Shown: piece by piece, positions 14,722 through 63,541 of the stretch
How positions within the stretch are numbered: the stretch's first letter is position 1
Layout of the letters: every line of letters starts with the position of its first letter
Assembly: GCA_045537905.1 (NCBI GenBank)
Contig: JAZSQJ010000070.1
Location: 5,628 to 69,627 of the forward strand
Direction of reading: 5' to 3'
From: Eubacteriales bacterium
GTDB lineage: Bacteria > Bacillota > Clostridia > Oscillospirales > CAG-382
Length of the DNA stretch: 64,000 nucleotides
Program-made: the position numbers and the translations under genes
Notes under the pieces: generated by a model
Databases searched by the model: none
What the model was told of the DNA's origin: nothing
What the model saw: only the letters and a program-made list of their open reading frames with translations

Positions 14722-15822
14722 CTAAATTTGTATATACTTTTCGGTGATATTATCCATATCCTCAAGCTTTTTAAGGGCATCCTTAGCTAACGCCAGCTGA
14801 CACCTGCCTCGAACCAGGTTATGGGTAGGGTAGCTTGTTTTGAAGTATTTGTCCCCCTCAAGGTAATCCGTAAGGAAACGGACAGACAGCTCCAGTGCCA
14901 TAAGGATAACACCCCAAGGCATATTCTTTATCTCGGTATTCGTTATCTTCCCCATCATCGGCGGCAAAAAGCCTGCCGCAAACGCCCTGTATCTGTCAAG
15001 GTCCAGGGAAACCTTGGAAAGGTCTGCCTCGTCCTCTGCTGCGGTATTTGCCGCAAAACGTACGGCGTCACCAAAGTCGGTCATGGTAAAGCCGGGCATA
15101 ACCGTATCCAGGTCGATAACCGCCAAGGGCTCACCGGTGCGGATATCCAGCATTATGTTGTTACCCTTCGTATCGTTATGAGTAACCCTTACGGGGATTT
15201 TGCCCTGATTATACAAATCTGTAAAACGGTAGGCGTGCTTGTATACCGTGCGGAGATACTCTACCTCCTCGCAAAGCTCAGCCGCTCTGCCGGAAGTATC
15301 CTCGTCGTATGCCTTGAAAAAGGTATCAAAACGCAAAGGTGTGTTGTGAAAATTGGGAATAGTTTCGTATAGGTCGCCGCCGGGAAAATCAGAAAGCATA
15401 GACAAAAAGCGACCAAAGCCTCTGCCAACAGCCTCAAGCATCTTGTTATCGTAAACGTCGTAGGTTGCCGCATTGTAAACAAAGGTCATAACACGCCAAT
15501 ACTCACCGCTTTGGGTAACGTACAGGCAATTGTCGCCGTTTTTGTACAGCCTTATAACCTTCCGCTTAACGTCAGGCTCACCCATTTCCTCCAGCTTACG
15601 CCTTACGTGGGAGGTAACAGCCTGAACGTTTTTTATAATAAGCTCCGGTTTTTTGAAAACGTAGTTGTTTACACGCTGAAATAGGTAAGACCTTATTTTA
15701 CCGTCTACGTCCATATCTACTCTGTATGTATTGTTTATGTGTCCTCTTTTTAAGGGAACAACCTCTTTTACTGTCCCTTTCAAGCCGTAAGCCTGACATA
15801 TTTCGTTAAACACATTATCCAT
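14722..15822 (-). CDS. nahK: N-acetylhexosamine 1-kinase (APH-fold phosphotransferase)
   Basis: RVTHNDTKGNNIMLD, VIDLDTVMPG, DFGDAVRFAANTAAEDEADLSKV and RFLTDYLEGDKYFKTSYPTHNLVR track Bifidobacterium NahK almost motif for motif (from memory). Confidence 0.75.
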   Translation of the reverse strand: MDNVFNEICQAYGLKGTVKEVVPLKRGHINNTYRVDMDVDGKIRSYLFQRVNNYVFKKPELIIKNVQAVTSHVRRKLEEMGEPDVKRKVIRLYKNGDNCLYVTQSGEYWRVMTFVYNAATYDVYDNKMLEAVGRGFGRFLSMLSDFPGGDLYETIPNFHNTPLRFDTFFKAYDEDTSGRAAELCEEVEYLRTVYKHAYRFTDLYNQGKIPVRVTHNDTKGNNIMLDIRTGEPLAVIDLDTVMPGFTMTDFGDAVRFAANTAAEDEADLSKVSLDLDRYRAFAAGFLPPMMGKITNTEIKNMPWGVILMALELSVRFLTDYLEGDKYFKTSYPTHNLVRGRCQLALAKDALKKLEDMDNITEKYIQI

Positions 15823-15884: not shown

Positions 15885-17768
15885 TTATTGCTGTATTCTC
15901 AAAACCTCGCCCATACCGGGTTGAACGTCTATAAAGCCCTCGTATTCTTTATCAGTGAGCATGGATCTGTACTCACCCTCAAGCGTAAGTCTTGCCGTGT
16001 CGCCCCCGGTGTTGGTGCATACCACTACTCTATCCGCTTCCTCTCCACGCTCGAAAGCAAAGAGGCCGCCCTTTGCCTTAAGAACCTTAAAGGCAGTGGA
16101 CTTGAACACGCTGTCCTTCCTGAGGTTTATCAGCGTTTTGTACCAACTGAATATCTCCTTGTCCTCCCTGCCCCAGGGATAGGGGCAACGGTTAAAGGGG
16201 TCACGGTAGCCTTCCATACCCGCCTCGTCACCGTAATAGATGCAAGGTATACCGGGAAGGGTCATCTGCAGCAGCACTGCCGTCATAAGCCTGTGGCGTG
16301 CCACGATACGGTGAAGGGTATCCATTTTCTTAACCGCAAGCTCTGCATTGGTATAGCCGTCAGAACGCTCACCGCCCATTATGGTAAGGATACGCTCGGT
16401 ATCGTGGGTGCCGAGAATGTTCATCATATATGAGGTTTTGTGTAAGGGATAATGTCTGTATAAGGTATCTACTGTGTCTGCTAAAAAGTCTGCACTGCCG
16501 TGAAGCACGTACTCCACTATGGCACTGCGGAGGGGATAGTTCATTACCGAGTCGAGCTGGGCACCCTGAAAATACTTCTTACGCTCACCGTAAGCCATTT
16601 TGTCAGAGGCGTCCTCCCAAACCTCGCCAACTATATAGGCGTCCTCCTTCTTGCTCTTTATAGCCGCACAAAGCTCGGTAACGAAATCGCTTTCCAGCTC
16701 GTCAACTACGTCAAGACGGAAGCCTGCCGCACCCATTGACATATATTTATCTACTACGCCGCCCACGCCGTTAATAAGCTGTCGGAAAGAATGGTTGCGG
16801 TTTACACGGGGAAGGTTGCCTATACCCCACCAGGACTGATAGTAATCGGGATACTCCTTAAAGTTAAACCAGCTGTAATAGGGGCTTGACTGACCGCCGG
16901 AGTATGCACCGTTGCCGCCGTATTTGCCGTATTTATCAAAGTAAAGGCTATCATCGCCCACGTGGTTAAACACGCCGTCCAGAATAACGCCTATACCCCG
17001 TTCTGCCGCTTGGTCAAACAAATTCTTAAGAGCCTCGTCGCCGCCGAACATCTCGTCAACCTTCATATAGTCGCCCGTGTCGTACTTATGGTTGGAATAC
17101 GCCTTGAACACGGGGCTGAGATAGATACAGGTAACACCAAGCTCTGCCAGGTAGTCCAGCTTCTCGGCAACGCCCCAGAGGGTGCCGCCGAAGAAGGTGT
17201 TGTTAGGCAGAAAATCACCCTGATGCTCTGCGTATTCGGGGACGCCGTTATCCCAATCCGTAAGCATAACGGCGTCATCCCTTACGGGAACTTCCCTACT
17301 GCCCTTGTAAAACCTGTCTACAAACACGTGATAGATTATGCCGCCCTCAAGCCAGGAGGGAGACTTATACTTTTCGTCATATATAAGCATCCTGCCTATA
17401 TATACCTTATCATAGCCTATAGTGCCGCCTGCACGCATATACCACTTGCCCGATGCGGTATGCAGCTCGTACCCGTAAAAGTACAGACCTGCAACGGAGG
17501 GGATGGGAAGGTCAAACCTGTACACGTCAAAGCCCTTGTCAAGCCCAGACCATACACCGTCAACACGCATATCCTCGCCGCCGTCACGGGCAAACAGTAA
17601 CGTTGCCTTAAGCACTGCAAGAGAGCGCCTTGTTTTCAAAACCGGTATCATTTCCTCGCCAATAGCCAAAGCCCTGCTACCGCTTATTTTTCCGTTTTTA
17701 TATGTGATTGATACACAATCCACCGCGTTACCACGGTCGGTTTGTGCATTTAGAACTCTAAGTGCCAC
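15885..17768 (-). CDS. GH13 alpha-glucan hydrolase (neopullulanase/cyclomaltodextrinase-like)
   Basis: All four GH13 regions are intact: VILDGVFNHVG, GFRLDVVDE, VGEVWED, LGTHDTERI. Confidence 0.85.
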   Translation of the reverse strand: MALRVLNAQTDRGNAVDCVSITYKNGKISGSRALAIGEEMIPVLKTRRSLAVLKATLLFARDGGEDMRVDGVWSGLDKGFDVYRFDLPIPSVAGLYFYGYELHTASGKWYMRAGGTIGYDKVYIGRMLIYDEKYKSPSWLEGGIIYHVFVDRFYKGSREVPVRDDAVMLTDWDNGVPEYAEHQGDFLPNNTFFGGTLWGVAEKLDYLAELGVTCIYLSPVFKAYSNHKYDTGDYMKVDEMFGGDEALKNLFDQAAERGIGVILDGVFNHVGDDSLYFDKYGKYGGNGAYSGGQSSPYYSWFNFKEYPDYYQSWWGIGNLPRVNRNHSFRQLINGVGGVVDKYMSMGAAGFRLDVVDELESDFVTELCAAIKSKKEDAYIVGEVWEDASDKMAYGERKKYFQGAQLDSVMNYPLRSAIVEYVLHGSADFLADTVDTLYRHYPLHKTSYMMNILGTHDTERILTIMGGERSDGYTNAELAVKKMDTLHRIVARHRLMTAVLLQMTLPGIPCIYYGDEAGMEGYRDPFNRCPYPWGREDKEIFSWYKTLINLRKDSVFKSTAFKVLKAKGGLFAFERGEEADRVVVCTNTGGDTARLTLEGEYRSMLTDKEYEGFIDVQPGMGEVLRIQQ

Positions 17769-17793: not shown

Positions 17794-20220
17794 TTATTTT
17801 TTGCCCTTAAGTCTCTGGAGATGCCAGATATCGTTGGCATAGTCCATTATGCTTCTGTCTGCGGCAAACTTGCCTGCCTTTGCTATGTTTACAAGAGACA
17901 TCTTGTTCCACGCTCTGCGGTCCTCGTAGGCTGCAAGCAGCTCGTTATGAGCGTCCTGATAGAAGTCAAAGTCTGCAAGACACATATATGGGTCAGCTAT
18001 GCCATAGGAGAAGAGGAGATAGTTTGCTATATCAGCAAAGGATCTGCCGTTGAAGCCTGTTTGCAGATAGTCTATCGCCTTCTTGAGAGACTCGTTTCTG
18101 TTATAGTAGTAGGAGGAAGCGTAGCCCTTCTTCCAAAGCTCGTCAACCTCTTCTGCGGTGTGACCGAAGATGAAGATGTTGTCCTCGCCTACCTCTTCAC
18201 AAATCTCAACGTTTGCACCGTCAAGGGTACCGATGGTAACGGCGCCGTTTATCATAAACTTCATATTACCCGTACCGCTGGCTTCCTTACCTGCAAGAGA
18301 AATCTGCTCGCTTACGTCGGCAGTAGGAATAAGATGCTCTGCCAGAGTTACGTTATAGTTTTCAAGGAAGAGTACGTTAAGCTTTTCCTTGATCTTGGGA
18401 TTCTTCTGAATATCTGCGCTGATGTAGCAGATAAGACGGATGATGTCCTTAGCCATATAGTAGCCGGGAGCTGCCTTACCGCCGAAAATAAAGGTTCTGG
18501 GTCTGATATTAAGGTCGGGATTTTCCTTAAGTGCACAGTAGATGCTGATGATGTGGATAGCGTTGAGAAGCTGACGCTTATACTCGTGAATACGCTTAAC
18601 CTGTACGTCGAAGATGGAGTCAGGGTCAAGCTCTACACCTGCGGTGCGACGCATATAGTTGGAGAAATCTACCTTATTGTCGTGCTTGATCTTTGCAAGC
18701 TCGTCAAGGATAGGAGCGTCGTCCTGGTACTGAAGGAGCTTAACAAGCTCTGCCGCATTGGTGCGGTAGCCGCTGCCAATGGTGCTGTCCAACAGCTTTG
18801 CAAGACGGGGGTTGGAATAGCAGAGCCATCTGCGGTGAGCTATACCGTTGGTTACGTTAAGGAACCTTTCGGGATACATATCGTTAAAGTCTCTGAAGGT
18901 GTTGGACTTTAATATATCGGTATGCAATGCGGAAACGCCGTTTATCTTATGGCTGCCGATAACGGAAAGGTTTGCCATACGGATCTGACCGTTGTTGATA
19001 ATAGACATTCTGCCAACCTTGTTCCAGTTGCCGGGGAAGCAATTCCAAGCCTCTGCACAGAAACGCTCGTTAATCTCGCGGATAATCATATACAGACGGG
19101 GCAGCTTGAGACGGAAGAGACCCTCGTTCCAGCACTCAAGAGCTTCGGGCATAACGGTATGGTTGGTGTAAGACATAGTTCTTACTACCATATCCCACGC
19201 CTGCTCCCAGGAATAGTTGTGAAGATCCATAAGGATACGCATAAGCTCGGGTATACAAAGAGCAGGATGGGTATCGTTTATATGGATAGCAACCTTTTCG
19301 GGAAGAGTGTTAAGGTTTTTATAGATAGAAATGTGGTCGTGAATAATGTTCTGGAGAGATGCGCTTACAAGGAAATACTGCTGGCTGAGACGGAGCAGCT
19401 TACCCTCGGGATGGTTATCGTTAGGATAAAGCACCTTGGAAATGGTCTGTGCTATGGTGTTTTCCTCAACAGCCTTGATGTACTGCCCCTGAGAGAAAAG
19501 CTCCATATTAAAGTTGCGGATATCCTGTGCCTTCCAGAGACGGAGGGTGGTAATAGCCTCGCTGTCTGCACCGGAAACAAGCATATCGTAGGGAACAGCC
19601 TCTACCTCTTCATAGTTCTCGTGAATAATTTCACAACGGCCGTTGTCCCATTTTTCGGTTATAGTGCCGCCAAAGCGTACAACGCAGGATTTGTCCTGAC
19701 GGGGAACGAGCCATACGTCACCGCCGGGCATCCATATATCGGGAAGCTCTATCTGCTCACCCTCTGCCAGCTTCTGCTTAAACAGACCGTATTCGTAAAG
19801 AATAGAGTAGCCTCTTGCAGGGTATGCAAGGGTGGAGAGAGAGTCCATAAAGCAGGCTGCAAGTCTGCCAAGACCGCCGTTACCCAAACCCGGGTCGGCT
19901 TCCATCTCGTATATCTCGTCAAGCTTAAAGCCGTATTCCTTAAGAACACCTGCATATTCCTTTTCAAGTCCTAAGTTACAAAGGTTTGTGCGCAGGGAGC
20001 AACCCATAAGGAACTCCATACACATATAATAAACCTTCTTTTTGCCCTGTTCCTTGGTCTTTGCATTGAACAGCTTGCGTTTTTGAGCAAGGATGTCACG
20101 CACCGTCATAACGGTAGCCTTATACATCTGCTCCTTAGTTGCTTCTTCAAGGGGTACGCTGAAGTATCTGGACAGCTTATTGTGTATCGCCTCTTGAATG
20201 TCTTTGCGTTTTACGCTCAT
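17794..20220 (-). CDS. glgP: Glycogen/alpha-glucan phosphorylase
   Basis: GNGGLGRLAACF, EASGTGNMKFMINGA (PLP-Lys); 808 aa. Confidence 0.95.
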   Translation of the reverse strand: MSVKRKDIQEAIHNKLSRYFSVPLEEATKEQMYKATVMTVRDILAQKRKLFNAKTKEQGKKKVYYMCMEFLMGCSLRTNLCNLGLEKEYAGVLKEYGFKLDEIYEMEADPGLGNGGLGRLAACFMDSLSTLAYPARGYSILYEYGLFKQKLAEGEQIELPDIWMPGGDVWLVPRQDKSCVVRFGGTITEKWDNGRCEIIHENYEEVEAVPYDMLVSGADSEAITTLRLWKAQDIRNFNMELFSQGQYIKAVEENTIAQTISKVLYPNDNHPEGKLLRLSQQYFLVSASLQNIIHDHISIYKNLNTLPEKVAIHINDTHPALCIPELMRILMDLHNYSWEQAWDMVVRTMSYTNHTVMPEALECWNEGLFRLKLPRLYMIIREINERFCAEAWNCFPGNWNKVGRMSIINNGQIRMANLSVIGSHKINGVSALHTDILKSNTFRDFNDMYPERFLNVTNGIAHRRWLCYSNPRLAKLLDSTIGSGYRTNAAELVKLLQYQDDAPILDELAKIKHDNKVDFSNYMRRTAGVELDPDSIFDVQVKRIHEYKRQLLNAIHIISIYCALKENPDLNIRPRTFIFGGKAAPGYYMAKDIIRLICYISADIQKNPKIKEKLNVLFLENYNVTLAEHLIPTADVSEQISLAGKEASGTGNMKFMINGAVTIGTLDGANVEICEEVGEDNIFIFGHTAEEVDELWKKGYASSYYYNRNESLKKAIDYLQTGFNGRSFADIANYLLFSYGIADPYMCLADFDFYQDAHNELLAAYEDRRAWNKMSLVNIAKAGKFAADRSIMDYANDIWHLQRLKGKK

Positions 20221-20244: not shown

Positions 20245-21684
20245 TTAAGCTAAAATATCGTTGTACATATCAATGTAGGTCTGGGCGGATTTATCCCAGG
20301 AAAAATCTACGCTCATAACCCTTTTTACCAGTGCATTCCAGGTTTCCTTGTCACGGTACACACCACAGGCACGCTTCACTGCATTAAGCAGCTCCCACTG
20401 GCTGTACTGGGCAAAGGTAAAGCCGTTGCCGCCGTCAGGCCAGCCGATGTCCTTGATGGAATCGTACAGACCGCCCGTTTCCCTTACTATCGGCACCGTG
20501 CCGTAGCGGGAGGCTATCATCTGGGCAAGACCGCAGGGCTCGCTCTTGGAGGGCATCAAAAACAGGTCTGCACCTGCATATATCTTTTTGGATATATCCT
20601 TGTTGTACATAAGAAGGGTGCTTACCTTGCCCTTGTGGTTTTCTGCCAGGTGCCAGAAATAGTCCTCGTAAGCAAAGTCGCCCTGTCCAAGTATAACAAG
20701 CTGAACGTCGTCACGCAGTATCTCCTCAGCCGCCGCCATAACGAGGTCAACACCCTTATGCCCCGTCAGACGGGTAATCATAGCAACGAGAGGAGTATTT
20801 GCAGACTCGGTAAGACCTACCATATTCTGCAGCTGCTTTTTGTTCTCTGCCTTGCCTGCCATATCCTCTGCGGAATAGGTAGCAAAGGTTGCAGGGTCGT
20901 TGGCGGGATTGTAATAATCCACGTCTATACCGTTGAGTATACCTCTCAGCTTGCCCTTGTTCTGCTCCAGCACGTGATGGAGACCGTTAGAGAAGGTGGG
21001 ACTGAGTATCTCAAGGGCGTAGGTAGGGCTGACCGTGCTGACGGTGTTGGCACATACTATGGCGCCCTTCATAAGATTGATGGCACCGTTGTAGTCCACC
21101 ACTGCCCTGTCCGCCTCGGAAAGCTCAAACACGTCGCCCAGAATCTCGTGTCCGTACACGCCCTGATACGCAATGTTGTGGATAGTAAACACGCTTTCGA
21201 TATTCCTGTAGCCGTCAAGGGCTGAATAACGCTGACGGAGGTATATCACCGTAAGCGCACTTTGCCAGTCGTGAGCGTGGAGGATATCCGGGAAGAAATC
21301 AATAATAGGCAAGGACTCCATTACTGCCTTACAGAAGAAGGCGTAACGCTCGCCGTCGTCAAAGCTACCGTAAAGGGTAGGACGCTTGAAATAATACTCG
21401 TTATCCAATAAGTAATAGGTAACGCCGTTGTGGTTGAGAAGGTGGATACCGAGATACTGGCGACGCCAGGATAGGTTTATATACGTGTCGCCCAGCTTAA
21501 TGAGCTTTGCGCGGAACTCCTCCTTCATGCTGCCGTAAAGGGGCATAATTACACGGACGTCCATACCGCCCTTAGCCGCCTTTTGCAGTGCCGCAGGAAG
21601 GGAGCCTATTACATCACCCAAGCCGCCTGAGGAGGCAAAAGGAACAGCCTCCGATGCGACAAACAGTATTTTCTTTTTTACCAT
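20245..21684 (-). CDS. glgA: Glycogen synthase (GT5, ADP-glucose type)
   Basis: HAHDWQSAL, HNIAYQG, PSKSEPCGLAQM, RETGGL. The N-terminal motif reads PFASSGGLGDV instead of the usual K(T/S)GGL. Confidence 0.9.
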   Translation of the reverse strand: MVKKKILFVASEAVPFASSGGLGDVIGSLPAALQKAAKGGMDVRVIMPLYGSMKEEFRAKLIKLGDTYINLSWRRQYLGIHLLNHNGVTYYLLDNEYYFKRPTLYGSFDDGERYAFFCKAVMESLPIIDFFPDILHAHDWQSALTVIYLRQRYSALDGYRNIESVFTIHNIAYQGVYGHEILGDVFELSEADRAVVDYNGAINLMKGAIVCANTVSTVSPTYALEILSPTFSNGLHHVLEQNKGKLRGILNGIDVDYYNPANDPATFATYSAEDMAGKAENKKQLQNMVGLTESANTPLVAMITRLTGHKGVDLVMAAAEEILRDDVQLVILGQGDFAYEDYFWHLAENHKGKVSTLLMYNKDISKKIYAGADLFLMPSKSEPCGLAQMIASRYGTVPIVRETGGLYDSIKDIGWPDGGNGFTFAQYSQWELLNAVKRACGVYRDKETWNALVKRVMSVDFSWDKSAQTYIDMYNDILA

Positions 21685-21704: not shown

Positions 21705-22835
21705 TTACACCACGGTGAGCTTATCTATAAAGAAAGGTCTGGTTTCGTGTCCGGAAAGAACTCTGCCATCTCTGATAACAACGTCCTTGTCGGTGATTAC
21801 ACAGTTAAGGTCTGCGTTTTCACCTATAAGGGTGTCCTGCATAATGATAGAGTTACGGATAACCGTGTTTTTGCCAACCTTTACGCCACGGAAAAGGATA
21901 GAGTTTTCTACGGTGCCGTGGATGATACAGCCGTCTGCGATAAGGGAGTTACGAACGTTGCTGCCCTCCTCGTAAACCGTGGGGCTGGAGTTACGGATTT
22001 TGGTGTAAACAGGACGGTTTTTAACGTTGAACAGGCTGTCTCTTGCAGAGGAGCTGAGCAGGTCCATATTACACATATAATAATCGGTAAGAGAGTTGAT
22101 GGATGCAAAATAGCTGTCATAGCGGTAAACTCTGAAGGAGCTTATATCTATGTTCCTGCCGATAATATCCTTGGTAAAGCTGGAATAGCCGTGAGCAGAC
22201 GCATCAAGAATAATGTTTTCAAGATACTTTCTGCGCATAACCATAATGTTAAGGTTAACGTCACAATAGCCGGAAACGATACCGTTACACTCGGATATAT
22301 CGGTTATACGGCCGTCAGCGTTAGACTCAACTACCTCAAAGTGCTTGATATCGGGGGTGATGTACATACGCTTTACAGCCATAGTTATATCCGCACCGCT
22401 GCTTATATGGTCGTTGATAATCTCGTTAAGGTCGATGTTGCAAACCACGTCACAGTCGGAAAGAAGAACGTACTCCTCGGTACAGCAGGACACAAACTCC
22501 AGCATACTCTTAACTGCCTCAAGCCTGGTGTTGTACAGAGAGTTCTGAGCGTTTGCAAAGGCTGTGATATAAGGAGGAAGTATCTTTATACCGCCGCTTC
22601 TGCGTGCCAGGTCCCAGTCCTTACCCGTGCCTATATGGTCCATCAGAGACTGATAGTTATAGTGGGTAACAACGCCAACGTGGGTAATACCTGAGTTTAC
22701 TATGTTGGACAGTGTAAAGTCTATAAGACGGTATCTGCAGCCGAAAGGAACGCTTGCCATAGTTCTTCTTCTGGTAAGCTCACTTACATTATGGTCATGT
22801 ATATTGGAAAAAATAATACCTACTACGCTTGCCAT
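21705..22835 (-). CDS. glgD: Glucose-1-phosphate adenylyltransferase, GlgD (regulatory) subunit
   Basis: GlgC paralogue lacking the GGxGxRL loop (IIFSNIHDHNVSELT); RYRLIDFTLSN; position after glgC. Confidence 0.9.
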   Translation of the reverse strand: MASVVGIIFSNIHDHNVSELTRRRTMASVPFGCRYRLIDFTLSNIVNSGITHVGVVTHYNYQSLMDHIGTGKDWDLARRSGGIKILPPYITAFANAQNSLYNTRLEAVKSMLEFVSCCTEEYVLLSDCDVVCNIDLNEIINDHISSGADITMAVKRMYITPDIKHFEVVESNADGRITDISECNGIVSGYCDVNLNIMVMRRKYLENIILDASAHGYSSFTKDIIGRNIDISSFRVYRYDSYFASINSLTDYYMCNMDLLSSSARDSLFNVKNRPVYTKIRNSSPTVYEEGSNVRNSLIADGCIIHGTVENSILFRGVKVGKNTVIRNSIIMQDTLIGENADLNCVITDKDVVIRDGRVLSGHETRPFFIDKLTVV

Positions 22836-22838
22836 AAA

Positions 22839-24056
22839 TTATTCCCCCTCCTCAGACAAAAGCTCATCAAGGTAAGCAGAGTCAGCACGGACGCCCCCTG
22901 CGATAACGGTGCCGGCCTTTATATCAAGACCGGAGCCTATAAGGGCAATGCCCTTGCCGCTTTCCTTAGAGTCACCTACACGGGCGTTTACGCCAACGGT
23001 GGTGTCGCTATCCATTATAGAATACTCTACGGTAGCGTTTTCGGATATCACACAGTCACGCATAATAATACTGTCCTTAACAACGGCACCCTTGGCAACC
23101 TTTACGCCGCCTGAGAGCACGCTGTTGATAACCGTGCCGTATATCTCACAGCCGCCCGTAATAAGGCTGTTTTCAACGGTCGCACCGTAACCCAGAAAAT
23201 GGGGTGGGTTGGACTGGTGCCTGGAGAAGATACGCCAGCTGGGATTGTTAAGGTTAAGGGAGGGACGGTCACCCAGAAGGTCCATATTAGCCTCCCACAG
23301 AGAGTCGATAGTACCTACGTCCTTCCAATAGCCCTTGAAGGGATAGGCATAAAGGCTTTCCCCTGCGCCCAGCATAGCGGGGATAACGTTTTTACCAAAG
23401 TCCTTATCGCTGTTTTCGTCTGCCTCGTCAGCTATAAGATACTCGTACAGCTTATCCTTGGAGAAAACGTATACACCCATAGACGCCTTGGTGCTCTTGG
23501 GATTCTTGGGCTTTTCCTCAAACTCGTAAACACGCATATCGTCCGTGGTGTTCATTATACCGAAACGGCTTGCCTCGGACAGAGGCACGTCTATTACCGC
23601 AATGGTACAAGCAGCACCCTTACGCTTGTGATACTCAACCATTGCGCTGTAATCCATCTTGTAAATGTGGTCGCCCGATAGCACTACTACGTAGTCGGGG
23701 TCGTATTTATCAAGAAAATGCAGGTTTTGATAAATAGCATTTGCGGTGCCCTTGTACCAATCGGCACGCTTTTGCCCCTGATAAGGAGGCAAAACGGTAA
23801 CACCGCCAAAGGTACGGTCCATATCCCAGGGCTGACCGTTGCCTATGTATTCGTTAAGAGCCAAAGGCTGATACTGGGTAAGAACACCTACCGTATCTAT
23901 GCCCGAATTGATGCAGTTGGAAAGGGTAAAGTCAATAATCCTGTACTTGCTGCCAAAGGATACCGCAGGCTTTGCCACACGCTGAGTAAGCAAATAAAGC
24001 CTACTGCCTTGTCCTCCTGCCAGAAGCATTGCCACACATTCTTTCTTTTTAATCAC
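22839..24056 (-). CDS. glgC: Glucose-1-phosphate adenylyltransferase
   Basis: [40 protein letters not shown]-terminal left-handed beta-helix repeats. Confidence 0.95.
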
Positions 24057-25930
24057 GCCTTCTCATTCCCTTCAATTCTCTTTATTATAGTAAAGCCCAT
24101 AGGCGGTACCAGTATGTTTATACCGTAGCCGCCGTACTGTTTTACAGCTTTTCGTGGTACTTTGTTTGTTACACCGCCGCCGCCGTATTTTACCTCGTCG
24201 CTGCTGAACACCTCACGGTACATACCCTCACTGCTGAGAGGAATATGATACTGCCTTTGAACGGGAGCAAAGTTTATTACAACGGTAAGCTCGCTACCGT
24301 TTTTAGCGATGCGGTTATATAACAGGGTGTTTTCGTTTTTCCTGTCGGAGTCTATCCAGCGGAAGCCTCTGTAGTCTCCGTCCTGCTCCCAAAGCTCAGG
24401 ATTTTCAAGGTAAAACGCATTAAGGTCTGCTACATAGGTCTGGAACTTGGCGTGCATATCGTAGCCCAGCATAAACCACTCCAGAGAGTCGTCAAAGTCC
24501 CATTCCTTAAACTGGGCAAACTCACTGCCCATAAAGGTAAGCTTCTTGCCCGGGTGGGTCATCATATAACCCATATACGCCCTTGCGCAGGCGAATTTTT
24601 GGTAGTAGTCCCCTGCCATCTTGTCTATAAGCGACTTTTTGCCCTGTGCCAGCTCCCCGTGGTGGAGAGGGATAATAAACCTTTCGTCAAAAGCACACAG
24701 GAAGGAATACTTCAAATTTTCGTGTATGTCCTTACGGTAAAAGGGGTCGTAGGTTACGTATTTAAGGGTGTCGGGAGCGAAGCTTGCGTTCCACTTAAGG
24801 TCAAAGCAAAGCCCGTCCTTTTTGGTCATATGGGGATAGTCCGTATTTTCCTCTGCTATAAGCATTACGTCGGGATAATAGTTTTTCATCTCGCCGCCCA
24901 GCTTTTTGAAGAAATGTATAGACTGGACGTTTATACTTGAACCGTCGGGATTAGGGTTCCACTCCCCTGCCTCACGGCCGTAGTCAAGATGCAGCATAGA
25001 GCTTAGTGCCGTTGCACGGAGCCCGTCTATATGATACTTATCCGCCCAGAACATTGCGTTTGATACAAGGAAGCACTGCACCTCGTTCCTAGCTACGTCA
25101 AAGCATCTTGTATCCCAGTTTTTCTGCTCCTTACGGTCCTCGCCCTGATACTCGTACAGGGGTCCGCCGTCAAACTCGTAAAGCCCGTGGGCGTCCTTAG
25201 GAAAATATGCGGGAACCCAGTCCAGTATAACGCCTATACCCACAGAGTGCATTTTGTTAACGAAATACATAAAGTCGTGAGGGGTACCGAAACGGGAGGT
25301 GGGAGCGTAATATCCGCATATCTGATAACCCCAGGAGACATCAAAGGGATGCTCCATTATAGGCAAAAGCTCAATATGAGTGTAACCCATACGCTTAACG
25401 TATGCCGCCAGTCTGTCAGCCAGCTCCCTGTAATTAAGGAAGCCGCCGTCTGCACTCCGTTGCCAGGAGCCAAGATGCACCTCGTATATATTTATGGGTA
25501 CAGCAGGCATCTCACCGTCCTTAAGGCAATTGTACTTCTTCGCTCTGAAGTCCATATAGCCCTTGTCGGTCCACTCAAAGCCATCCAGATTATAAAGACG
25601 GGAGGCTGTACTGCTCATAGTCTCAGAAAAGAACGCATAGGGGTCTGCCTTGAAACGGCGTACACCGTCACGCTCGATTATATATTTATATCTGTCGCCC
25701 TTACCTATAGGAAAGCCCTTGAGAGTTATGCTCCACACATCGCCGTTGTTGGTCATAGGTATGTCCGCCTTCCAGCCGTTGAAATCACCGGCTATATACA
25801 CGGCGTCGGCGTTGGGTGCCCATACTCGGAATGTATATACACCCTTACTCTCCCTGTGTGCGCCCAGATATTCGTATGCTTTATAGTTTGTACCCTGCTT
25901 AAACAGGTACAACGCAAGATCGTTTTCCAT
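24053..25930 (-). CDS. glgB: 1,4-alpha-glucan branching enzyme homologue (GH13_9-like) with substituted catalytic residues
   Basis: Collinear with Bacillus/E. coli GlgB over its whole length ([43 protein letters not shown]). Region I is DWVPAYF (usual DWVPGHF). Region II is [10 protein letters not shown] (usual G(F/L)RVDAVASM). Region III AEENT keeps the Glu. Region IV is [11 protein letters not shown] (usual P(F/L)SHDEVVHGK). The Thr codon ACG at 25012-25010 was confirmed on the DNA. Confidence 0.85.
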
Positions 25931-25947
25931 GTCAAAACACCTCTTTG

Positions 25948-31648: not shown

Positions 31649-32228
31649 AATCTAATTTGCACCTTACAACGGTGTACTCGAAGCCGTAGCTGTTTCTTGC
31701 AAAAAAGCTAAGCTCCCCTTCCCCATCAGACAGCTTCTCGTAGGAAACGTCCTCAGTTATAAGAATCTCACTTACCGCATAGGTGTAGCGAGCACCCAAG
31801 GTGTCGGTAAAATATACCGTATCGCCCGTGGATATATTCTTCATAAAATCAAACTGGCCCTCGTTATCACTGCCGCCGATTATCAGACTGCTGTCGTATA
31901 TGCTGCCGTCGAATCTATGGGGATATTTGCTTACGTCCTTTGCACTCCATTTATTTGCAACGGGCAAGCACACGTTATAAGCGGGTATCTCTATAATACC
32001 TACAAAGTCTACACCGTCCAGCTCTATGGAAGGCATAACGGTGTCTCCCTTGCCGTCAGGATATCCGTTTTGGACTTCAGGCATCAGTTCTTTCATTTCC
32101 TCGGTAATAGCCGCCGCCTTGTCTTTGTTGCCGGGAATGGCAATTCTGTTAACCACAAGCAAGGCCAGAGCCGATGCAAACAAAAGAATGCCCAAGATGA
32201 GGATTATCTGCGATACTCTTTTAGTCAT
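31647..32228 (-). CDS. Sortase-fold membrane protein lacking the canonical His/Cys/Arg triad (pseudo-sortase)
   Basis: N-terminal TM anchor. The sortase-like core (IEIPAYNVCLPV..., GDTVYFTDTLGARYTYAV) aligns to SrtA/SrtC. It has IIGGSDNEGQF where sortases have (I/V)AGH..., and ELSFFARNS where they have TLxTC. Confidence 0.6.
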   Translation of the reverse strand: MTKRVSQIILILGILLFASALALLVVNRIAIPGNKDKAAAITEEMKELMPEVQNGYPDGKGDTVMPSIELDGVDFVGIIEIPAYNVCLPVANKWSAKDVSKYPHRFDGSIYDSSLIIGGSDNEGQFDFMKNISTGDTVYFTDTLGARYTYAVSEILITEDVSYEKLSDGEGELSFFARNSYGFEYTVVRCKLD

Positions 32229-33129
32229 TAGCTTTCCTCTTTATGCCAACAGAAAGGAGCATAAGGATTGCGCCTACGGAAAACAATGCCAAAACATAGG
32301 GCCAAACTACTGCCACGTCGCCCGTGGGAGGTGGAGGTATTACCGTCTTAAAGGTGTTGGTTACGATAAAGGCAGTACCTTCCTCGGTAACGCTTACGGT
32401 ATAATTTTCGGCAATGTTTCGTTCTACAACAGTCCACTTGCTGCCATCGTCTGCCGCCTTCCAGCTGTAGGACCAATTGTTTTCTGCAGAAAGGGTTTGC
32501 GTCTCAACCGTCTTCCCATCCTTAAAAATTTCTATTTCTATAGAGGTGGGGCGTTTGTCGGAGCCGGAATCCTTCCACTGCTTTACAACCTTATACTCAA
32601 GCTCATCAGGCTCGGGAACGTGGGTAGTATGCTTGGGAAGAGCCGTTACCTCGTACTGAGGATTGCCGTCTGCATCGGGTCTGGGCAGAGAGGAGAAAAA
32701 GCTTTCAAAGCTGTATATCAAATCGTTCTTTTCGCTCTGTACGCCGTATACAAGATAAAGTCCCTTGCTAAGACCTTCAAAGACAGCCTTACCCTCCTCG
32801 TCGGTCTTGACGGTAGCGGCAGGAGAAATGCCGTCAGCTACTATATAGGAGGTGAGAGTAGTAGCGATAGTACGCCACTCCTCCTGACTTTTTACAACTT
32901 TGACATCAACGGGATAGTCCTTGAAGTCACCGCTGAGGGTATAGGCACCGTCTGCACCTATATCGGCTACACGGAACAGGCTTATTTCAAGACCGTCAAA
33001 CAAAAGCTCCTCTGCCTTATACACAACCGTAAGGGTAGCTGTTTGTTCACCATCCTCAGCAAAGGCAAGGGTGCCGCCCATTTGCAACAGCAACGCCAAG
33101 GTTATTAAAAACACAAGTATTTTTTTCAT
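32221..33129 (-). CDS. Cna-B-domain minor (probable base) pilin with PPPTG-type sorting signal
   Basis: Signal peptide; CnaB-like YKVVKQWKDSGSDKRPTSIEIEIFKDGK...NYTVSVTEEG. C-terminal IPPPPTGD plus a hydrophobic helix plus KRKAND. Confidence 0.75.
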   Translation of the reverse strand: MKKILVFLITLALLLQMGGTLAFAEDGEQTATLTVVYKAEELLFDGLEISLFRVADIGADGAYTLSGDFKDYPVDVKVVKSQEEWRTIATTLTSYIVADGISPAATVKTDEEGKAVFEGLSKGLYLVYGVQSEKNDLIYSFESFFSSLPRPDADGNPQYEVTALPKHTTHVPEPDELEYKVVKQWKDSGSDKRPTSIEIEIFKDGKTVETQTLSAENNWSYSWKAADDGSKWTVVERNIAENYTVSVTEEGTAFIVTNTFKTVIPPPPTGDVAVVWPYVLALFSVGAILMLLSVGIKRKAND

Positions 33130-33132
33130 ATA

Positions 33133-33960
33133 CTAGTCCTCCCTGTCATCTTTTTTCACAGGCTTAAACAATACTATCATCATAAGCACAAAGAGTATGG
33201 GCAGTGCAACGATAGGTGCAACGACCAACACGTCTATAACGTATCCGTCGGTTTTAACGTAAATAACCTTATGCTCAATCGTTTCTATACGGCGTCCCCG
33301 TACCAAAAGACGCTCCGTATTAACGCCGTAAGGCGTGCAAGTGAGCAGGGTGCAATAATCACCGCCTGAGTCTATCTGCAAAAGAGATGCATCGTCAGGC
33401 ATTACTATGCGTATCTGGTCCACCTGATAGGTCAACGTACGGTCGAGGATGGTAACGGTAAAGGTGTCGCCTACTGACAGCTTATCAAGGTCGGTAAACA
33501 GCTTTGCACTGGGCAGACCGCGGTGGGCAGACACAACGGCATGGGTGCCTGTGCCGCCTATAGGCAGGCTTGTTCCCTGCAGATGACCTATGGCTACGGA
33601 CAAAACGCCGTCCGAGGTGCCGTGGTACAAGGGAAGCTCTATACCGATTTTCTTTATTGTTACATAGCCCATCATACCTACGGAGTTAAGATTAAGCACG
33701 TCAAAGTAGCCGTCAACCTGATTATACTCCGTAAGTGGATAGTCCAGACTGCTTAGTTTTTTATTATACTCCTCGGCTTTGTTAAATATGGCGGTGTAGT
33801 CCGCATTATTAAGGGCGTCAAGCATAGACTGATAGTCAACTATAGCCATTGACTGGGTCTTAGAGTTCCAATAATCGCTGAGTGCAGGATACAGCATAAT
33901 TGAAAGCCCTATAAAAAACGCAAGGAGCAACATAAACGTTGGCCATTTTTTTTGTTTCAT
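33133..33960 (-). CDS. Class C (pilin-polymerising) sortase
   Basis: VVSAHRG (His), TLLTCTPYGVNTERLLVRG (Cys and Arg), N- and C-terminal TM helices. Confidence 0.9.
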   Translation of the reverse strand: MKQKKWPTFMLLLAFFIGLSIMLYPALSDYWNSKTQSMAIVDYQSMLDALNNADYTAIFNKAEEYNKKLSSLDYPLTEYNQVDGYFDVLNLNSVGMMGYVTIKKIGIELPLYHGTSDGVLSVAIGHLQGTSLPIGGTGTHAVVSAHRGLPSAKLFTDLDKLSVGDTFTVTILDRTLTYQVDQIRIVMPDDASLLQIDSGGDYCTLLTCTPYGVNTERLLVRGRRIETIEHKVIYVKTDGYVIDVLVVAPIVALPILFVLMMIVLFKPVKKDDRED

Positions 33961-33985
33961 TTACAATAATTACTTCCTTAATTTT

Positions 33986-34058
33986 CGGTGCAGAAGCCGC
34001 TGCCCTACTGTTAAGACATCGGCTTCTGCACCCAAAACCAAAGGCTTTGGGTGCAGAA
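33986..34058 (-). promoter_or_regulatory. Three-segment alternative-hairpin element between the major pilin and sortase genes
   Basis: The middle segment (34020-34036, cggcttctgcacccaaa) can pair with 34046-34058 (tttgggtgcagaa; 13 bp, perfect). It can alternatively pair with 33986-33999 (cggtgcagaagccg; 13 of 14). The two pairings are mutually exclusive. The second helix ends 8 nt upstream of the sortase RBS. Confidence 0.5.
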
Positions 34059-34088
34059 TATATTAGTATTATACCAATAAAATTACGA

Positions 34089-35492
34089 TTAGTCAACAAC
34101 CTTGGACATTCTTACTCTGGTAACGAAGAATATGCCTGCAAGGAGAGCTACAAGACCGCCAACCAGGATGAACATGGTGGTGCCGAAGCCGCCGGTTTCA
34201 GGAAGAACTGCACCGGTCTTGTTGATTACCTGTACACCGCCTTCAATGTAAATCCCTTCGGTAACGGTTGCATCGTTATTAGCAGCGCTGATAGTAACAG
34301 ACTGGCGTGCGGTAAGCTTGTTATAGCCTGCAGGAGCAACAGTTTCTTCAAGATAATAAGTAGCACTGTCGAGACCGGCGATGGTAGCTTTACCGTTAAG
34401 GGTTTCGATTTCAACGCCGGTTTCGCCTGCCTTAGCTACACGGTAAGAACCGTCTTCGATCTTAATAACGGAGATCTCGTTGCCTGCGGTAGCAGCATCG
34501 TAAAGCTTAAACTTAGCGCCGTTAAGAGTTGTGTCAGATTCATTAGTCTTTACAAGATCAAAACTGTAAACATAGGTAGTTGTGGTTGCTTCGTTAGACT
34601 TAAGGTCGCTGTTTTCGCCGTACACAAGGAAGGTCTTGTTGAGGTTGCCTGCACCGCCAACAACAGCATTTTCGTTGATGGTAGCTGTATATTCAACAAC
34701 GATAGCCTTGTTTGCAAGGGTAGCAACATAAGAGTTTTCAAACGAAATCTCAAAATCACAACCGTCGGTAAGATCAGTTGCGGTTACTGTGTAGTTAGCT
34801 TCATCAACAGCAACGCCGTCAACGGTAACAGAGCTAACGCCGGCATAATCAAGACCTGCATCCATTACGTCGTGAAGAACGTAATTCTCAGCACCTGCAA
34901 CAACGTTGATGGTGGTCTTAAAGTTTACGGTAGCAAAGAAATTGTCGTCGTTGGTTTCGCCCCAAGCATCGTCTTCTTTAACTTCCTTGGAAACGTTGGG
35001 GATAAGGTTCTTATCGTCTTTTTCGAAGGAGGTATCAGTGGTGTCGAGCACGCAGAGAGTACCAACGGTGGAGTCTACAAGGTAGTAACCAAGGTCAAGA
35101 CCTGTAAAGGAAACGGTAGTGCCATCAGCTTCTACGCTTTCGGTGGCGGAGATAGAATTGGTCTCAGCGTAAGCGATAGCGGCAGCAGCGATAGCAGCAG
35201 CGTCGGATGCGGAAACGGTTACACCGTTAGCAACGGTAACGATACCGGTATCTTCAGCGTAGCTAAAGTAAGCGCTTTGTGCTTTGAAGAAATCAACCCA
35301 TTCAGAAACAGCAGTGTAGGTATAAGCTTTAGCAGTTGCATTATAGCTAAGGTCTGCTATTTTGTAAATGGAGTAGTCCTGACCAGCAACGGTGTTGTTG
35401 ATGGTAATGGAGCCTTCGCCTTCAGCGGATACGGAGATGCAGCAAGCCATAAGAAGCATTACTGCGCAGAGGATTGCAACGATTCTTTTCAT
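34089..35492 (-). CDS. LPXTG-anchored major pilin (isopeptide-forming fimbrial subunit)
   Basis: Probable start MKRIVAILCAV (35492). E-box YYLEETVAPAGY; candidate pilin-motif lysine in LIPNVSKEV. C-terminal LPETGG plus hydrophobic helix plus RVRMSK. Confidence 0.85.
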   Translation of the reverse strand: MKRIVAILCAVMLLMACCISVSAEGEGSITINNTVAGQDYSIYKIADLSYNATAKAYTYTAVSEWVDFFKAQSAYFSYAEDTGIVTVANGVTVSASDAAAIAAAAIAYAETNSISATESVEADGTTVSFTGLDLGYYLVDSTVGTLCVLDTTDTSFEKDDKNLIPNVSKEVKEDDAWGETNDDNFFATVNFKTTINVVAGAENYVLHDVMDAGLDYAGVSSVTVDGVAVDEANYTVTATDLTDGCDFEISFENSYVATLANKAIVVEYTATINENAVVGGAGNLNKTFLVYGENSDLKSNEATTTTYVYSFDLVKTNESDTTLNGAKFKLYDAATAGNEISVIKIEDGSYRVAKAGETGVEIETLNGKATIAGLDSATYYLEETVAPAGYNKLTARQSVTISAANNDATVTEGIYIEGGVQVINKTGAVLPETGGFGTTMFILVGGLVALLAGIFFVTRVRMSKVVD

Positions 35493-35538
35493 AACATAAT
35501 TCCTTTCTGTTTTTTTGTTTATTTTAGTATGTTGCAAA

Positions 35539-38500
35539 CTAATTGGAACGATTGTTTTTACGCTTATATCTCAGCACACAAGCTCCGCCAAAGGCAAGAA
35601 GCATTACAGCAATGCCGATATAAGGCATAAGGCGTCTTATCAGACTGCCGTTTGTGGAAGGAAGCTCATAACCGCCTGCATTGTAGAAGGTTATGCCTGA
35701 AGCGTTTGTTATTTCCCCACTTGCGGTTAAACCGTTAACACGGTCTTCGCTGTCAGCAATTTTGTAGGCCGTTTGATAGCCGCCCGCAGCAGTCTCGGTA
35801 ACAGTCCATACTGCACCAATGGGCAGGTTTTGGATCTGAACGGTCTGACCGTGAGCAAGACTGATTGTAGCGGCACCGTCAACAAAGGCAACGGAGGTAA
35901 TAACACCGCTTGTATCGGTACAGGAGTAGGTGCCTGTTAAGGGAGTAGCTCCGTTCATAACCCTTACGGTAAACTCAAAGCTTCCCGTAGTATTTTCCAC
36001 ACCCTCTACTTCCTTGGATATGGACAGCACACCGACAAGGGCGTTTTCAAAGCTGAAGGTGCTTACACCGCTACCCGTACCGTTAAGCAACAGGGTAGGT
36101 GTTGCGGTGGTTTTACCCGTAGAAGAATCAACAGAAAAATCAACCTTAAGGATGTAATAATCAGTATCGTAGCCGGGATAGATGTCTGCGCCCTCCTCGT
36201 TAATCAGGAAGTAGGCGCTTGCACTTGTATCCCAAGAGGAGTTAAAGCTGAGTGTGAAGCTTACGGGTGCCGCCGCCGTGCCGTTAACCATAACGGTTTG
36301 AGACATCACAACACCGCCGTCAACGGGTACATAGGCACCGTCAACCAAGCTTACCTGCGTCAATTTCACGGTGTAATCGTGGTCGGCACCGTCGGAATTG
36401 AGCAGAGTTTTGTTACCGTTTACGCTTAGCTCAATCGGATCGACGCTGTTTGTAACCGTAACGACGTGCTTAGTGGAAAGAGCCGCATTACCAACAACGA
36501 CGCCGCCGTTGGTTGACAGGGTCTGGCTAAGGCTTCCATCCCACGCCGTATATGTGCCTGGGTTATTATTAGCACAGCTAAAGGAATAAGCCGTTTTATA
36601 GGTAGTGCTTGTTACCTCGTTAAGCTCTATCTTGGTCTCAGCCAGGATATTGTTGAACTTAACATACTTGTCAGAGCTGAACGTAACCTTACCTGCGGTG
36701 GTCACTGTGTGCATACCGCTTACCAAGGTGCCGTCGGCATTATATAGCTCATAGGGAGTGCCCACCGGGACGGGAACACCGTCAAATTTCAGGTCGAAGG
36801 TAAAGTTTCTTACCGCATTATTGAAGTCATCAAGCTCCTTGTGTATCTCAAGGGAGCTGTAGTAGTTTTCGTTAACCACATTGGTTACGTCAACTATCTG
36901 GATAGTCTGACGTTCATCAATAGTACGCTTAAAGATCTGAACCTCGGTAAGACCTACAACACCGCTGCCGGAGCCGGGAACGGTATTATCGCCCACAACT
37001 ATAGAATCCACGTAAACCTTTACTACAACTATGTTGCCGATAACGGGAGTACCCGTAATGGCATATTTGCGGACGTTGGCGGTAGATTCAATCTGTACGT
37101 GCTGATTTTTAGTAACAGAACCGAGGAGCGTACACTGGGTATAAGATTTTGCGTAACCGACGTACACCTCAATCCTATCGGGAAAGCCGCCGTAGTAACG
37201 ATTCCTTACAGTGGAGTATACGTTTACCTCGCCGACCTCAGCCGCCTCAGGTAAAACGAAATAGATATTAAACGACCCGGTGCTCAAAGGGTTAAAGCCG
37301 CTTGTGGTGACTTCCATAACGTTTGACGTGCCGTTTGTGGAAATAACACCGTCGTTTAGTTTACCTGCGTGGTCTATTGTATGTGCCGTGTATCCGTTTG
37401 CTTCGCCGTAGTCGCTCGTGTTGGGGACTGCCTGGCTACCCAAGGCGTACAAACCGCCGTTGGTTGATGCGGCAACATTTATATGCATAGCTTCCTCGGC
37501 ACCGCTGTTAGCGTGAATATGGTCGCTTTCTATAGCGTAGTAGTGTACTCCACCCACGACAATATCCTCGTTAACGTTACTAGACGGGGGATTTGGTGCA
37601 ATTTCTATAGTGACCGCCGAATACTGTGAGGCGTATTTTTTATCAACAAGCTCCCTGACGAAAAACTCTTTATCAAGGGGAACACCGCCCATTGCAACTT
37701 CATTCGCTTTAATGCGGATAATGCCGTTTGCATCAACAGTTCTACTTTCTATAAACTGAAGAGTCGCTTTGTCATACACCGCATATTCCGTACCGGGCTC
37801 TATAAGAACGGTATTATTATCGGTATCAGAAACACCGTCAATATGTTCAACTATCTGGAAAAGATAGTAGGGGTCGCCGACAACGGTACCGGCTTGAACC
37901 TCTTTGGAAATCTCTATACTGTTTTTAGGCATTGCAGTAAGGTTGAAGTTGATGCTGCACATACTGGAGCCCGAACCGCGCTCCATATAGTAGAAGTCAA
38001 GGGAGTGAACGGTATCTTCTGCAAAAGTACCGTTTACCAAGCTATTTGTGCTCATACCTGCCGCAGTAAGAATTTCAGCAAAGGTAACTACCTTATAGGG
38101 GGTAGATTCAATTTCACCCGTAAAGTCAAGCAGCTTGTAGTAGTAAACCTTACCCTCCCTGAAATTGATGGTACCGCCAACGTGGCTGTGGATACCTGAA
38201 AGGTCCAGGAACAAAACACCGTCAAGATATACCCAAACGTCATCGTCACCGGTGAAATTAAAGGTCATATCGTCCTTATCTGCACCTACAACACCGCCCT
38301 TGGGCTGTGCAAAATCAAAATGTATATCCATACCGAAGAAGAAGTTGCTTTCTTCATCGAAGTCTATGGAAAACAACTTATCAAAGCCGTTTTTTGCCAC
38401 CGTCTTTTCGTAAAGCTGATAAGAAGCGTCGGTGGTAGACGTTACCTTATCGGAATAATATTTAAGAAGCTGATAAGGCAGTACGCCTGCGCTTTCATAT

Positions 38501-49567: not shown

Positions 49568-49581
49568 TGTCCTTACCTCCT

Positions 49582-52716: not shown

Positions 52717-52735
52717 AATACGCCTCTTTTCTACG

Positions 52736-53302: not shown

Positions 53303-53390
53303 AGTCCACCGTCGGTGGCTGTTATTATGTAGCCGCCGTTCTCCTTTCTATAAGGAGTATTGACGGCTTTTTTCACGTTTATTCAGTTTT

Positions 53391-55375: not shown

Positions 55376-55383
55376 ATCTCTCC

Positions 55384-59787: not shown

Positions 59788-59788
59788 C

Positions 59789-62376: not shown

Positions 62377-62403
62377 TTTTTCTCCATTTTGCTAAAAATG
62401 CGT

Positions 62404-63528: not shown

Positions 63529-63541
63529 AAACACAGCTCCT

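Follow-up and report, generated by a model that had tools for sequence, protein, structure and literature searches.

Can a branching enzyme still serve the glycogen operon that it heads once the residues needed for branching are gone? This question is raised by a glgB gene in a 64,000-nucleotide (nt) stretch of contig JAZSQJ010000070.1 (assembly GCA_045537905.1) from a Eubacteriales bacterium. We refer to this whole stretch as the window and give all coordinates as window positions. The gene is one unbroken frame of 625 amino acids (aa) and encodes an orthologue of the glycogen-branching enzyme GlgB, a member of subfamily 9 of glycoside hydrolase family 13 (GH13_9), in which the nucleophile Asp, the transition-state Asp and the region-I His are absent (hereafter, triad-less). 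The sequence evidence favors the view that the protein is probably a non-catalytic, glucan-binding pseudo-branching enzyme acting in glycogen metabolism.

The window protein is a true GlgB, collinear with solved branching enzymes over its full length. Pfam identified a CBM48 domain followed by the alpha-amylase catalytic domain and the alpha-amylase C domain, and the protein exceeded the cut-offs of the NCBIfam GlgB equivalog NF008967 (734.4 bits versus 577) and of TIGR01515 (667 versus 464). A phmmer search against the PDB aligned it to the Cyanothece branching enzyme BE1 (5gqw) with no gaps across all four catalytic regions. Furthermore, the AlphaFold 2 (AF2) model (pLDDT 86.9, pTM 0.91) matched Cyanothece BE1 in Foldseek with a TM score of 0.94 and the GlgB proteins of E. 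coli, Rhodothermus and M. tuberculosis with scores of 0.83–0.92. A preliminary description of this DNA, made from the letters alone, had called the protein a collinear, full-length GlgB, and the gap-free alignment, equivalog score and fold all agree with it. The alignment placed no Asp/His/Asp triad at the catalytic positions.

In the alignment with 5gqw, the region-I motif DWVPAYF of the window protein stands opposite DWVPGHF, GLRATALSS opposite GIRVDAVAS in region II, AEENT opposite AEEST in region III, and HHGE opposite SHDE in region IV. The replacements listed in the preliminary description (His242Tyr, Asp307Thr with its ACG codon, Asp425Gly and an altered KWN loop) were confirmed in both register and codons, as were the unbroken frame and the 4-nt overlap with glgC. 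Its statement that only the general acid/base Glu survives was half right. The Glu is present. Of the two Glu residues in AEENT it is the first, Glu360, as shown by its distance of 53 from the nucleophile position, which equals that between Asp and Glu in known GlgBs (D405/E458 in E. coli and D434/E487 in cceBE1). It is not the sole survivor, however, as the −1 subsite residues Arg305, His424, Tyr202 and Asp237 are also kept.

Chance is excluded as an explanation for these replacements because His, Asp and Asp are otherwise universal at positions 242, 307 and 425. All 118 of the other close homologues have them, and there is no exception among the other full-length GlgB homologues of the 102 loci that we fetched. 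The window protein also departs from the consensus at 22 of the 235 columns that are at least 90% conserved, compared to 1–3 in the nearest canonical orthologues. The domain architecture, equivalog score and region-III Glu are those of a GH13_9 GlgB, but the nucleophile Asp, region-IV Asp and region-I His are missing. Three features of a pseudoenzyme are present: the catalytic residues have been replaced, their loss is fixed across lineages, and purifying selection followed. Without the nucleophile, the covalent glucosyl-enzyme intermediate could not form, and both the cleavage of alpha-1,4 chains and the formation of alpha-1,6 branches would be lost. We are therefore highly confident in the prediction that it is unable to branch.

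The triad-less gene is the operon's own glgB and not an additional copy. The order pnp-rpsO, WG, glgB, glgC, glgD, glgA, glgP, GH13, APH and sigma is common to the window, to related loci from metagenome-assembled genomes (MAGs) with the same replacements (L001/L011, from a goat-caecum MAG, and L012) and to loci encoding canonical GlgBs of 66–74% identity (L006, L008, L009, L010 and L013). Because the synteny is identical, the window gene is an orthologue of canonical glgB, and we rejected its interpretation as a paralogue. The 90%-identity cluster that holds the window protein has 10 members in four sublineages, which are 87–92% identical to one another. All 10 are 625 aa long and have Tyr at position 242 and Thr at position 307; position 425 is Gly (Ala in one member) and never Asp. 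The cluster includes an NCBI entry on a 74,359-bp contig (P0129) identical to the window protein, and the same states recur on independent contigs from NCBI, ENA, JGI and Logan. A scan of metagenome contigs yielded no closer relatives (best match, 55% identical).

A more distant homologue, P0002 (76% identical), has Phe at position 242 and Gly at position 307 but kept the region-IV Asp. It was recovered as sister to the clade with a bootstrap of 1.0, whether or not the active-site motif windows were included, and has 11 of the 36 derived states described below in common with the triad-less clade. The tree and common states indicate shared ancestry, and we rejected independent convergence for this protein. 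The codons are compatible with a path from CAT through TAT to TTT, with a change from His to Tyr in the common ancestor and then from Tyr to Phe in P0002. Together, the sister position, codon path and common derived states point, as the most probable history, to a single loss of the nucleophile and the region-I His that predates the split into four or five lineages. Deviations at conserved columns then rise along P0002 (11), P0001 (18) and the window protein (22).

Evolutionary rates set glgB apart from its neighbors. Tajima tests with two outgroups revealed an acceleration of glgB in the triad-less lineage (for example, 76 versus 29 unique changes, p = 4.5e-6) but none in glgC, glgD, glgA, glgP, the GH13 gene or pnp, and only isolated marginal signals (p 0.02–0.05) in the APH and WG genes. 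On the stem branch, 34 glgB changes (5.5%) occurred at sites invariant in four canonical orthologues, compared to 0.4–1.6% in seven neighboring genes. When three triad-less and five canonical sequences were used, the number of such stem sites was 36, half of which (18) fell within the 96 residues of the active-site motif windows (odds ratio 4.7, p = 3e-5). By contrast, the CBM48 region (aa 1–110) had 3 stem changes only, all of them conservative.

After this burst, the terminal-branch counts equal those of canonical orthologues. Non-synonymous divergence (dN) within the clade is 0.065–0.081 and synonymous divergence (dS) is at least 1.8 or saturated, for a dN/dS of about 0.04, as in canonical pairs (0.036–0.087). 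We computed pN, pS and the Nei-Gojobori (NG86) dN/dS with our own code; the NG86 function of Biopython gave saturated dS for several pairs. Each within-clade pair supports purifying selection (Fisher p < 1e-130), and several new residues were kept despite synonymous codon changes (GGG/GGT/GGC for G425, CAT/CAC for H314 and CCC/CCG for P386). The polarity of an operon opposes stops but not missense changes, and a dN/dS of about 0.04 therefore points to selection on the protein itself, as the preliminary description had proposed. The protein is, by these measures, almost certainly under purifying selection. Nevertheless, within-clade pairs differ at 5–9 family-conserved columns, compared to a mean of 1.5 and a maximum of 5 in 78 canonical pairs of equal divergence, and the differences fall in regions II and IV and in the KWN loop. 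The pattern appears to be that of a dead catalytic center still drifting within an otherwise constrained protein.

The loss of the triad extends beyond this clade. We ran a filter-only phmmer search on 1.84 billion representatives of 50%-identity clusters and aligned the best 150 matches with MAFFT. The canonical Y-D-H-R-D-E-H-D pattern was present in 100 of these 150 representatives, and 44–46 were without at least one of the nucleophile, the acid/base and the transition-state Asp, including 42 that are at least 590 aa long. They are 40–50% identical to the window protein and to canonical relatives alike and hence have independent origins. Like the window protein, they are full-length and have no triad, several head glgBCDA operons, and their CBM48, C domain, barrel core and region VII persist. 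Unlike in the window clade, the replacement residues are different and highly diverse, and many of these proteins also lack the acid/base Glu and the Arg. Across the 42 long representatives, conserved CBM48 columns are kept at 96% and those of region VII at 83–98%. Catalytic-center columns, in contrast, are kept at 21–45%, with H242, D307, E360 and D425 at only 24–45% (E360 at 45%). The columns altered in the window protein are those most often lost in the other triad-less representatives, although the window clade is younger and less eroded (14 of 99 universal columns changed, versus a median of 23 in triad-less lineages).

The loci of the independent triad-less homologues (L105/L106, L107, L109, L108 and L103/L104) provided their genomic context. 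P0135, with Cys, Gly and Asn at the catalytic positions, is the sole non-canonical protein among 119 relatives of up to 67% identity and heads a glgB-glgC-glgD-glgA operon. P0224, P0399, P0400, P0401 and P0402 form an old clade (44–74% mutual identity, 632–648 aa) in which all three catalytic residues are lost and the Arg is replaced by Lys. P0224 and P0400 each head an operon of the same order, and their loci are 60% identical in the triad-less GlgB, 86% in GlgC, 65% in GlgD and 74% in GlgA. The gene next downstream of P0141 is also glgC. Hence, three other independent triad-less lineages that we sampled precede glgC, two of them shown to head glgBCDA. P0213 (763 aa), on the other hand, lies outside any glg operon and adjoins genes for a DUF624 protein and an MscS channel. 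Thus, the survey of orthologues suggested in the preliminary description found the same substitutions in four sublineages and further triad-less lineages elsewhere. Triad-less GlgB appears to be a recurrent, unannotated phenomenon, of which the window protein is one case.

The preliminary description had offered three scenarios for the organism: a non-catalytic, glucan-binding pseudo-branching enzyme, storage of an essentially linear glucan, or branching by another enzyme. The first is the best supported. The operon's GlgB orthologue would have become a pseudo-branching enzyme kept under normal purifying selection. It would probably bind alpha-1,4-glucan non-catalytically, with the CBM48, surface sites and what is left of the cleft (Tyr202, Arg305, Glu360 and His424) as points of contact. 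The surface glucan-binding sites of the E. coli enzyme are stated to be conserved in Enterobacteria only (PMC10254366). Translated together with GlgC, GlgD and GlgA, it would work within the glycogen machinery. Candidate roles are to organize or solubilize nascent chains or to partner GlgA, GlgP or a second branching enzyme.

Other explanations are less compatible with these data. The protein could still be an enzyme with altered chemistry, such as a weak hydrolase, an inverting transferase or a glycosynthase-like enzyme using an activated donor (beta-glucose-1-phosphate). The retention of the acid/base Glu and of most of the −1 subsite fits this idea, and the many replacements that are identical in four sublineages, some despite synonymous changes, could mark a newly tuned site. 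Yet the remodeled positions still drift within the clade (198 V/A, 309 L/I, 311 S/P/A, 384 F/W, 423 H/Y, 425 G/A, 428 A/V and 429 Q/H), at 4–8 times the rate of canonical pairs, relative to the rest of the protein. The independent triad-less lineages have unrelated replacements and have often lost the Glu, and we know of no natural GH13 enzyme without a nucleophile. We therefore regard altered chemistry as unlikely. Recruitment to a function unrelated to glucan, as in the plant protein MKIP1 (AtBE1), which acts in plastid intron splicing, seems a little less probable still. MKIP1 has the same pattern of two replaced triad Asp residues in constrained alpha-amylase domains (PMC13172542), and P0213 illustrates a triad-less homologue away from glg genes. 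However, the window glgB is still the translationally coupled first gene of glgBCDAP, the three independent lineages described above are also tied to glgC, the CBM48 is the best-preserved part of the protein, and the collinear 625-aa chain gained no region.

Could the gene instead be decaying slowly, with its frame maintained solely to spare glgC, glgD, glgA and glgP the polar effect of a stop or frameshift? Its place as first gene of the operon, with a 4-nt overlap with glgC, would suit such a process, as would the stepwise loss from P0002 through P0001 to the window protein. But polarity cannot account for the scarcity of missense changes at saturated dS, the terminal branches show the rates of canonical orthologues, and the old P0224 clade is still full length at 44–74% identity. 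A dN/dS equal to that of canonical orthologues is not that of a decaying pseudogene, and we consider this explanation very improbable. The chance of a sequencing, assembly or binning artefact is negligible. Every source is a metagenome assembly, but the same states recur in ten distinct sequences on independent contigs, from many samples and assemblers, and each substitution needs a specific codon change. This recurrence refutes an artefact and excludes assembly error.

Several points do weigh against a non-catalytic, glucan-binding role. Catalytic death is deduced from the double-displacement mechanism of GH13 enzymes, and with the acid/base Glu and most of the −1 subsite in place, some residual or altered chemistry may persist. 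The non-catalytic role itself is read only from the conservation pattern and the operon position. The AF2 model does not fix the geometry of the cleft, because its confidence is low exactly at the altered loops (190–200, 240–270 and 425–430). Stem substitutions were also raised outside the motif windows (5.9%), and this excess could reflect adaptive remodeling toward something besides glucan binding. Last, fast-evolving sequences are over-represented when clusters are formed at 50% identity, and triad-less proteins are therefore less common than their share of about 30% of the clusters suggests; at 90% clustering, only 2 of the 120 nearest clusters were non-canonical.

The source of branching, if any, bears on the type of polymer that is stored. 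The intact GH13 gene at the end of the operon, which the preliminary description had considered as a possible source, did not hold up in that role: its motifs identify it as a neopullulanase/cyclomaltodextrinase-type hydrolase and, by prediction, not a branching enzyme. We found no second GH13_9 gene and no GH57 gene in the 64-kb window with Pfam and NCBIfam searches of 34 of its 47 larger open reading frames (ORFs), and a canonical GlgB, used as tblastn query on the window and on the flanking DNA of L001, L012 and L103–L108, returned the known copy only. Gut Clostridia, however, commonly have two or three glgB homologues (PMC10395257). Structures of a Faecalibacterium duncaniae protein named 'FdBE2' (PDB 21jh and 21kg) were released on 2025-12-31, and their existence implies that more than one GH13 branching enzyme is possible in Oscillospiraceae. 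A second branching enzyme is therefore plausible. If there is none, the product of GlgA would be linear and amylose-like, and GlgP and the neopullulanase-like GH13 could degrade it without debranching. We tentatively suggest, as a broader proposal of lower probability, that dead GlgBs form an unrecognized recurrent bacterial class, encoded at the head of the operon in many Clostridia, of CBM48-based glucan-binding organizers or partners of GlgCD-GlgA and that, where no second branching enzyme is present, the reserve is an unbranched, amylose- or granulose-like glucan that is slowly mobilized.

These proteins matter for annotation as well as for enzymology. Public records label the triad-less proteins '1,4-alpha-glucan branching protein GlgB' and, because they pass GlgB models, genome-based predictions of glycogen branching would be wrong for these gut Clostridia. 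That a dead enzyme was retained at the head of the operon, repeatedly and over long periods, implies a non-catalytic function for branching enzymes in the synthesis of alpha-glucan. Some gut anaerobes might even store unbranched glucan deliberately. Moreover, P0002, P0001, the window protein and the P0224 clade form a graded natural series, with which the sequence of steps in the evolution of a pseudoenzyme could be tested directly.

On the minus strand, the window operon reads WG-repeat gene, triad-less glgB, glgC, glgD, glgA, glgP, a neopullulanase/cyclomaltodextrinase-type GH13 gene and a gene for an APH-fold kinase (Table 1). The glgB stop and the GTG start of glgC share the 4 nt GTGA. The rest of the pathway is intact: GlgC, GlgD, GlgA and GlgP exceed equivalog or subfamily cut-offs and keep their signature motifs. 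GlgA has SSGGLGDV where KxGGL is usual, as do the GlgA proteins of the whole group; this motif is found in triad-less and canonical species alike and is therefore unrelated to the change in GlgB. The WG-repeat gene precedes glgB in all related loci and is very fast-evolving, with the copies of the window and L001 60% identical and their neighboring genes 87–98%. The APH-fold gene had no NCBIfam match; it could belong functionally to the glg operon and encode a kinase for a sugar or maltose.

Table 1. Features of the glg operon and of the triad-less glgB gene (window positions).
Feature	Position	Strand	Remarks
APH-fold (PF01636) kinase-like gene	14722–15822	−	Follows the GH13 gene in all related loci
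GH13 neopullulanase/cyclomaltodextrinase-like hydrolase	15885–17768	−	DGVFNH, GFRLDVVDE, GEVW and HDTER intact
glgP, alpha-glucan phosphorylase	17794–20220	−	Pyridoxal phosphate (PLP)-Lys motif EASGTGNMK present
glgA, glycogen synthase (GT5)	20245–21684	−	Intact
glgD, non-catalytic GlgC paralogue (regulatory subunit)	21705–22835	−	TIGR02092, 354 bits versus cut-off 237
glgC, ADP-glucose pyrophosphorylase	22839–24056	−	Intact, no rate acceleration; GTG start
glgB, triad-less	24053–25930	−	GH13_9 branching-enzyme orthologue, 625 aa; without nucleophile Asp, transition-state Asp and region-I His
C-terminal all-beta alpha-amylase domain, aa 525–617	24080–24358	−	Intact; Pfam PF02806
Region IV, His424 and Gly425	24656–24661	−	His kept; Gly for transition-state Asp (codon GGG, 24656–24658)
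Loop KWNASFAP, aa 379–386	24773–24796	−	In place of family-invariant KWNMGWMN
Glu360, general acid/base (AEENT)	24851–24853	−	Codon GAG; kept, from alignment and spacing
Region II core, R305-A306-T307	25010–25018	−	Arg kept; nucleophile Asp replaced by Thr (codon ACG, 25010–25012)
Tyr242 (DWVPAYF)	25205–25207	−	Codon TAT; in place of conserved region-I His
CBM48 domain, aa 22–99	25634–25867	−	Intact; Pfam PF02922, E=8e-20
Shine-Dalgarno AAGAGGTG	25938–25945	−	Upstream of the glgB ATG
WG-repeat (PF14903) protein, 403 aa	25948–27159	−	N-terminal membrane anchor; ends 17 nt before glgB

The rest of the window holds genes of other functions. Synteny breaks beyond pnp, where the window has a sortase-dependent pilus/adhesin cluster (32221–40902, minus strand) with genes for a Cna-B protein, a sortase, a SpaA-type pilin and a 1787-aa DUF7601 protein, and L001 has spoIIGA-sigE-like genes. 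A transposase gene with helix-turn-helix and rve integrase-core domains (43494–44642, plus strand), part of an insertion sequence element, adjoins a gene for an aldose 1-epimerase. The region from 46229 to 63534 (minus strand) is a housekeeping block, ordinary in appearance, with addA, addB, a GHMP kinase gene, polC, ispG, rseP (M50 protease) and dxr. A 529-aa protein (5103–6692, plus strand) combines an N-terminal domain of the purple-acid-phosphatase type with a type I dockerin at its C-terminus, a hint that the organism may have a cellulosome-type scaffold system.

The window protein has the CBM48, (beta/alpha)8 and C-domain architecture of the canonical GlgBs of E. coli, Cyanothece (BE1) and Rhodothermus and is collinear with them over its full length. 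Its syntenic canonical orthologues are 74% identical and hold the same first place in glgBCDAP. It differs from canonical GlgBs in the loss of the nucleophile Asp, the transition-state Asp, the region-I His and the KWNMGWMN loop. In the library that we searched, we found no report of a bacterial inactive or triad-less GlgB, or of such a pseudoenzyme, and no paper on FdBE2. The closest precedent is plant MKIP1 (AtBE1), a class III branching enzyme whose triad Asp residues are replaced (H558 and N682 in AtMKIP1) and which has no branching activity (PMC13172542). MKIP1 works with MatK in plastid splicing, its alpha-amylase domains are described as evolutionarily constrained, and restoration of the triad did not restore activity (PMC13172542). 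Both proteins are full-length branching-enzyme homologues that have kept the Glu but have other residues in place of the two triad Asp (E360, T307 and G425 in the window protein). MKIP1, however, is eukaryotic and deeply diverged and has an MKIP1-specific inserted region, whereas the window protein is a recently derived bacterial GH13_9 member with no insertion, is still encoded in a glycogen operon and has canonical Clostridia GlgBs (74% identity) as nearest relatives.

Alpha-glucan metabolism has another GH13 pseudoenzyme in plant ISA2, a non-catalytic GH13_11 isoamylase subunit. ISA2 is a paralogue that partners catalytic ISA1, whereas the triad-less GlgB is the orthologue itself, and no such partner was found within the 64-kb window or the fetched flanks. 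A parallel is also encoded in the same operon. GlgD is a non-catalytic paralogue of a glycogen-pathway enzyme that Firmicute glg operons retain as a regulatory subunit (PMC10395257) and, in the P0224 clade, it evolves at a rate similar to that of the dead GlgB (65% versus 60% identity). Unlike dead GlgB, which is sporadic and lineage-specific, GlgD occurs in every glgBCDAP operon, and its partner, GlgC, is known. By analogy, the role of the window GlgB may resemble that of GlgD for GlgC and of ISA2 for ISA1. A pseudoenzyme derived from a branching enzyme was already known; what is new is the bacterial case.

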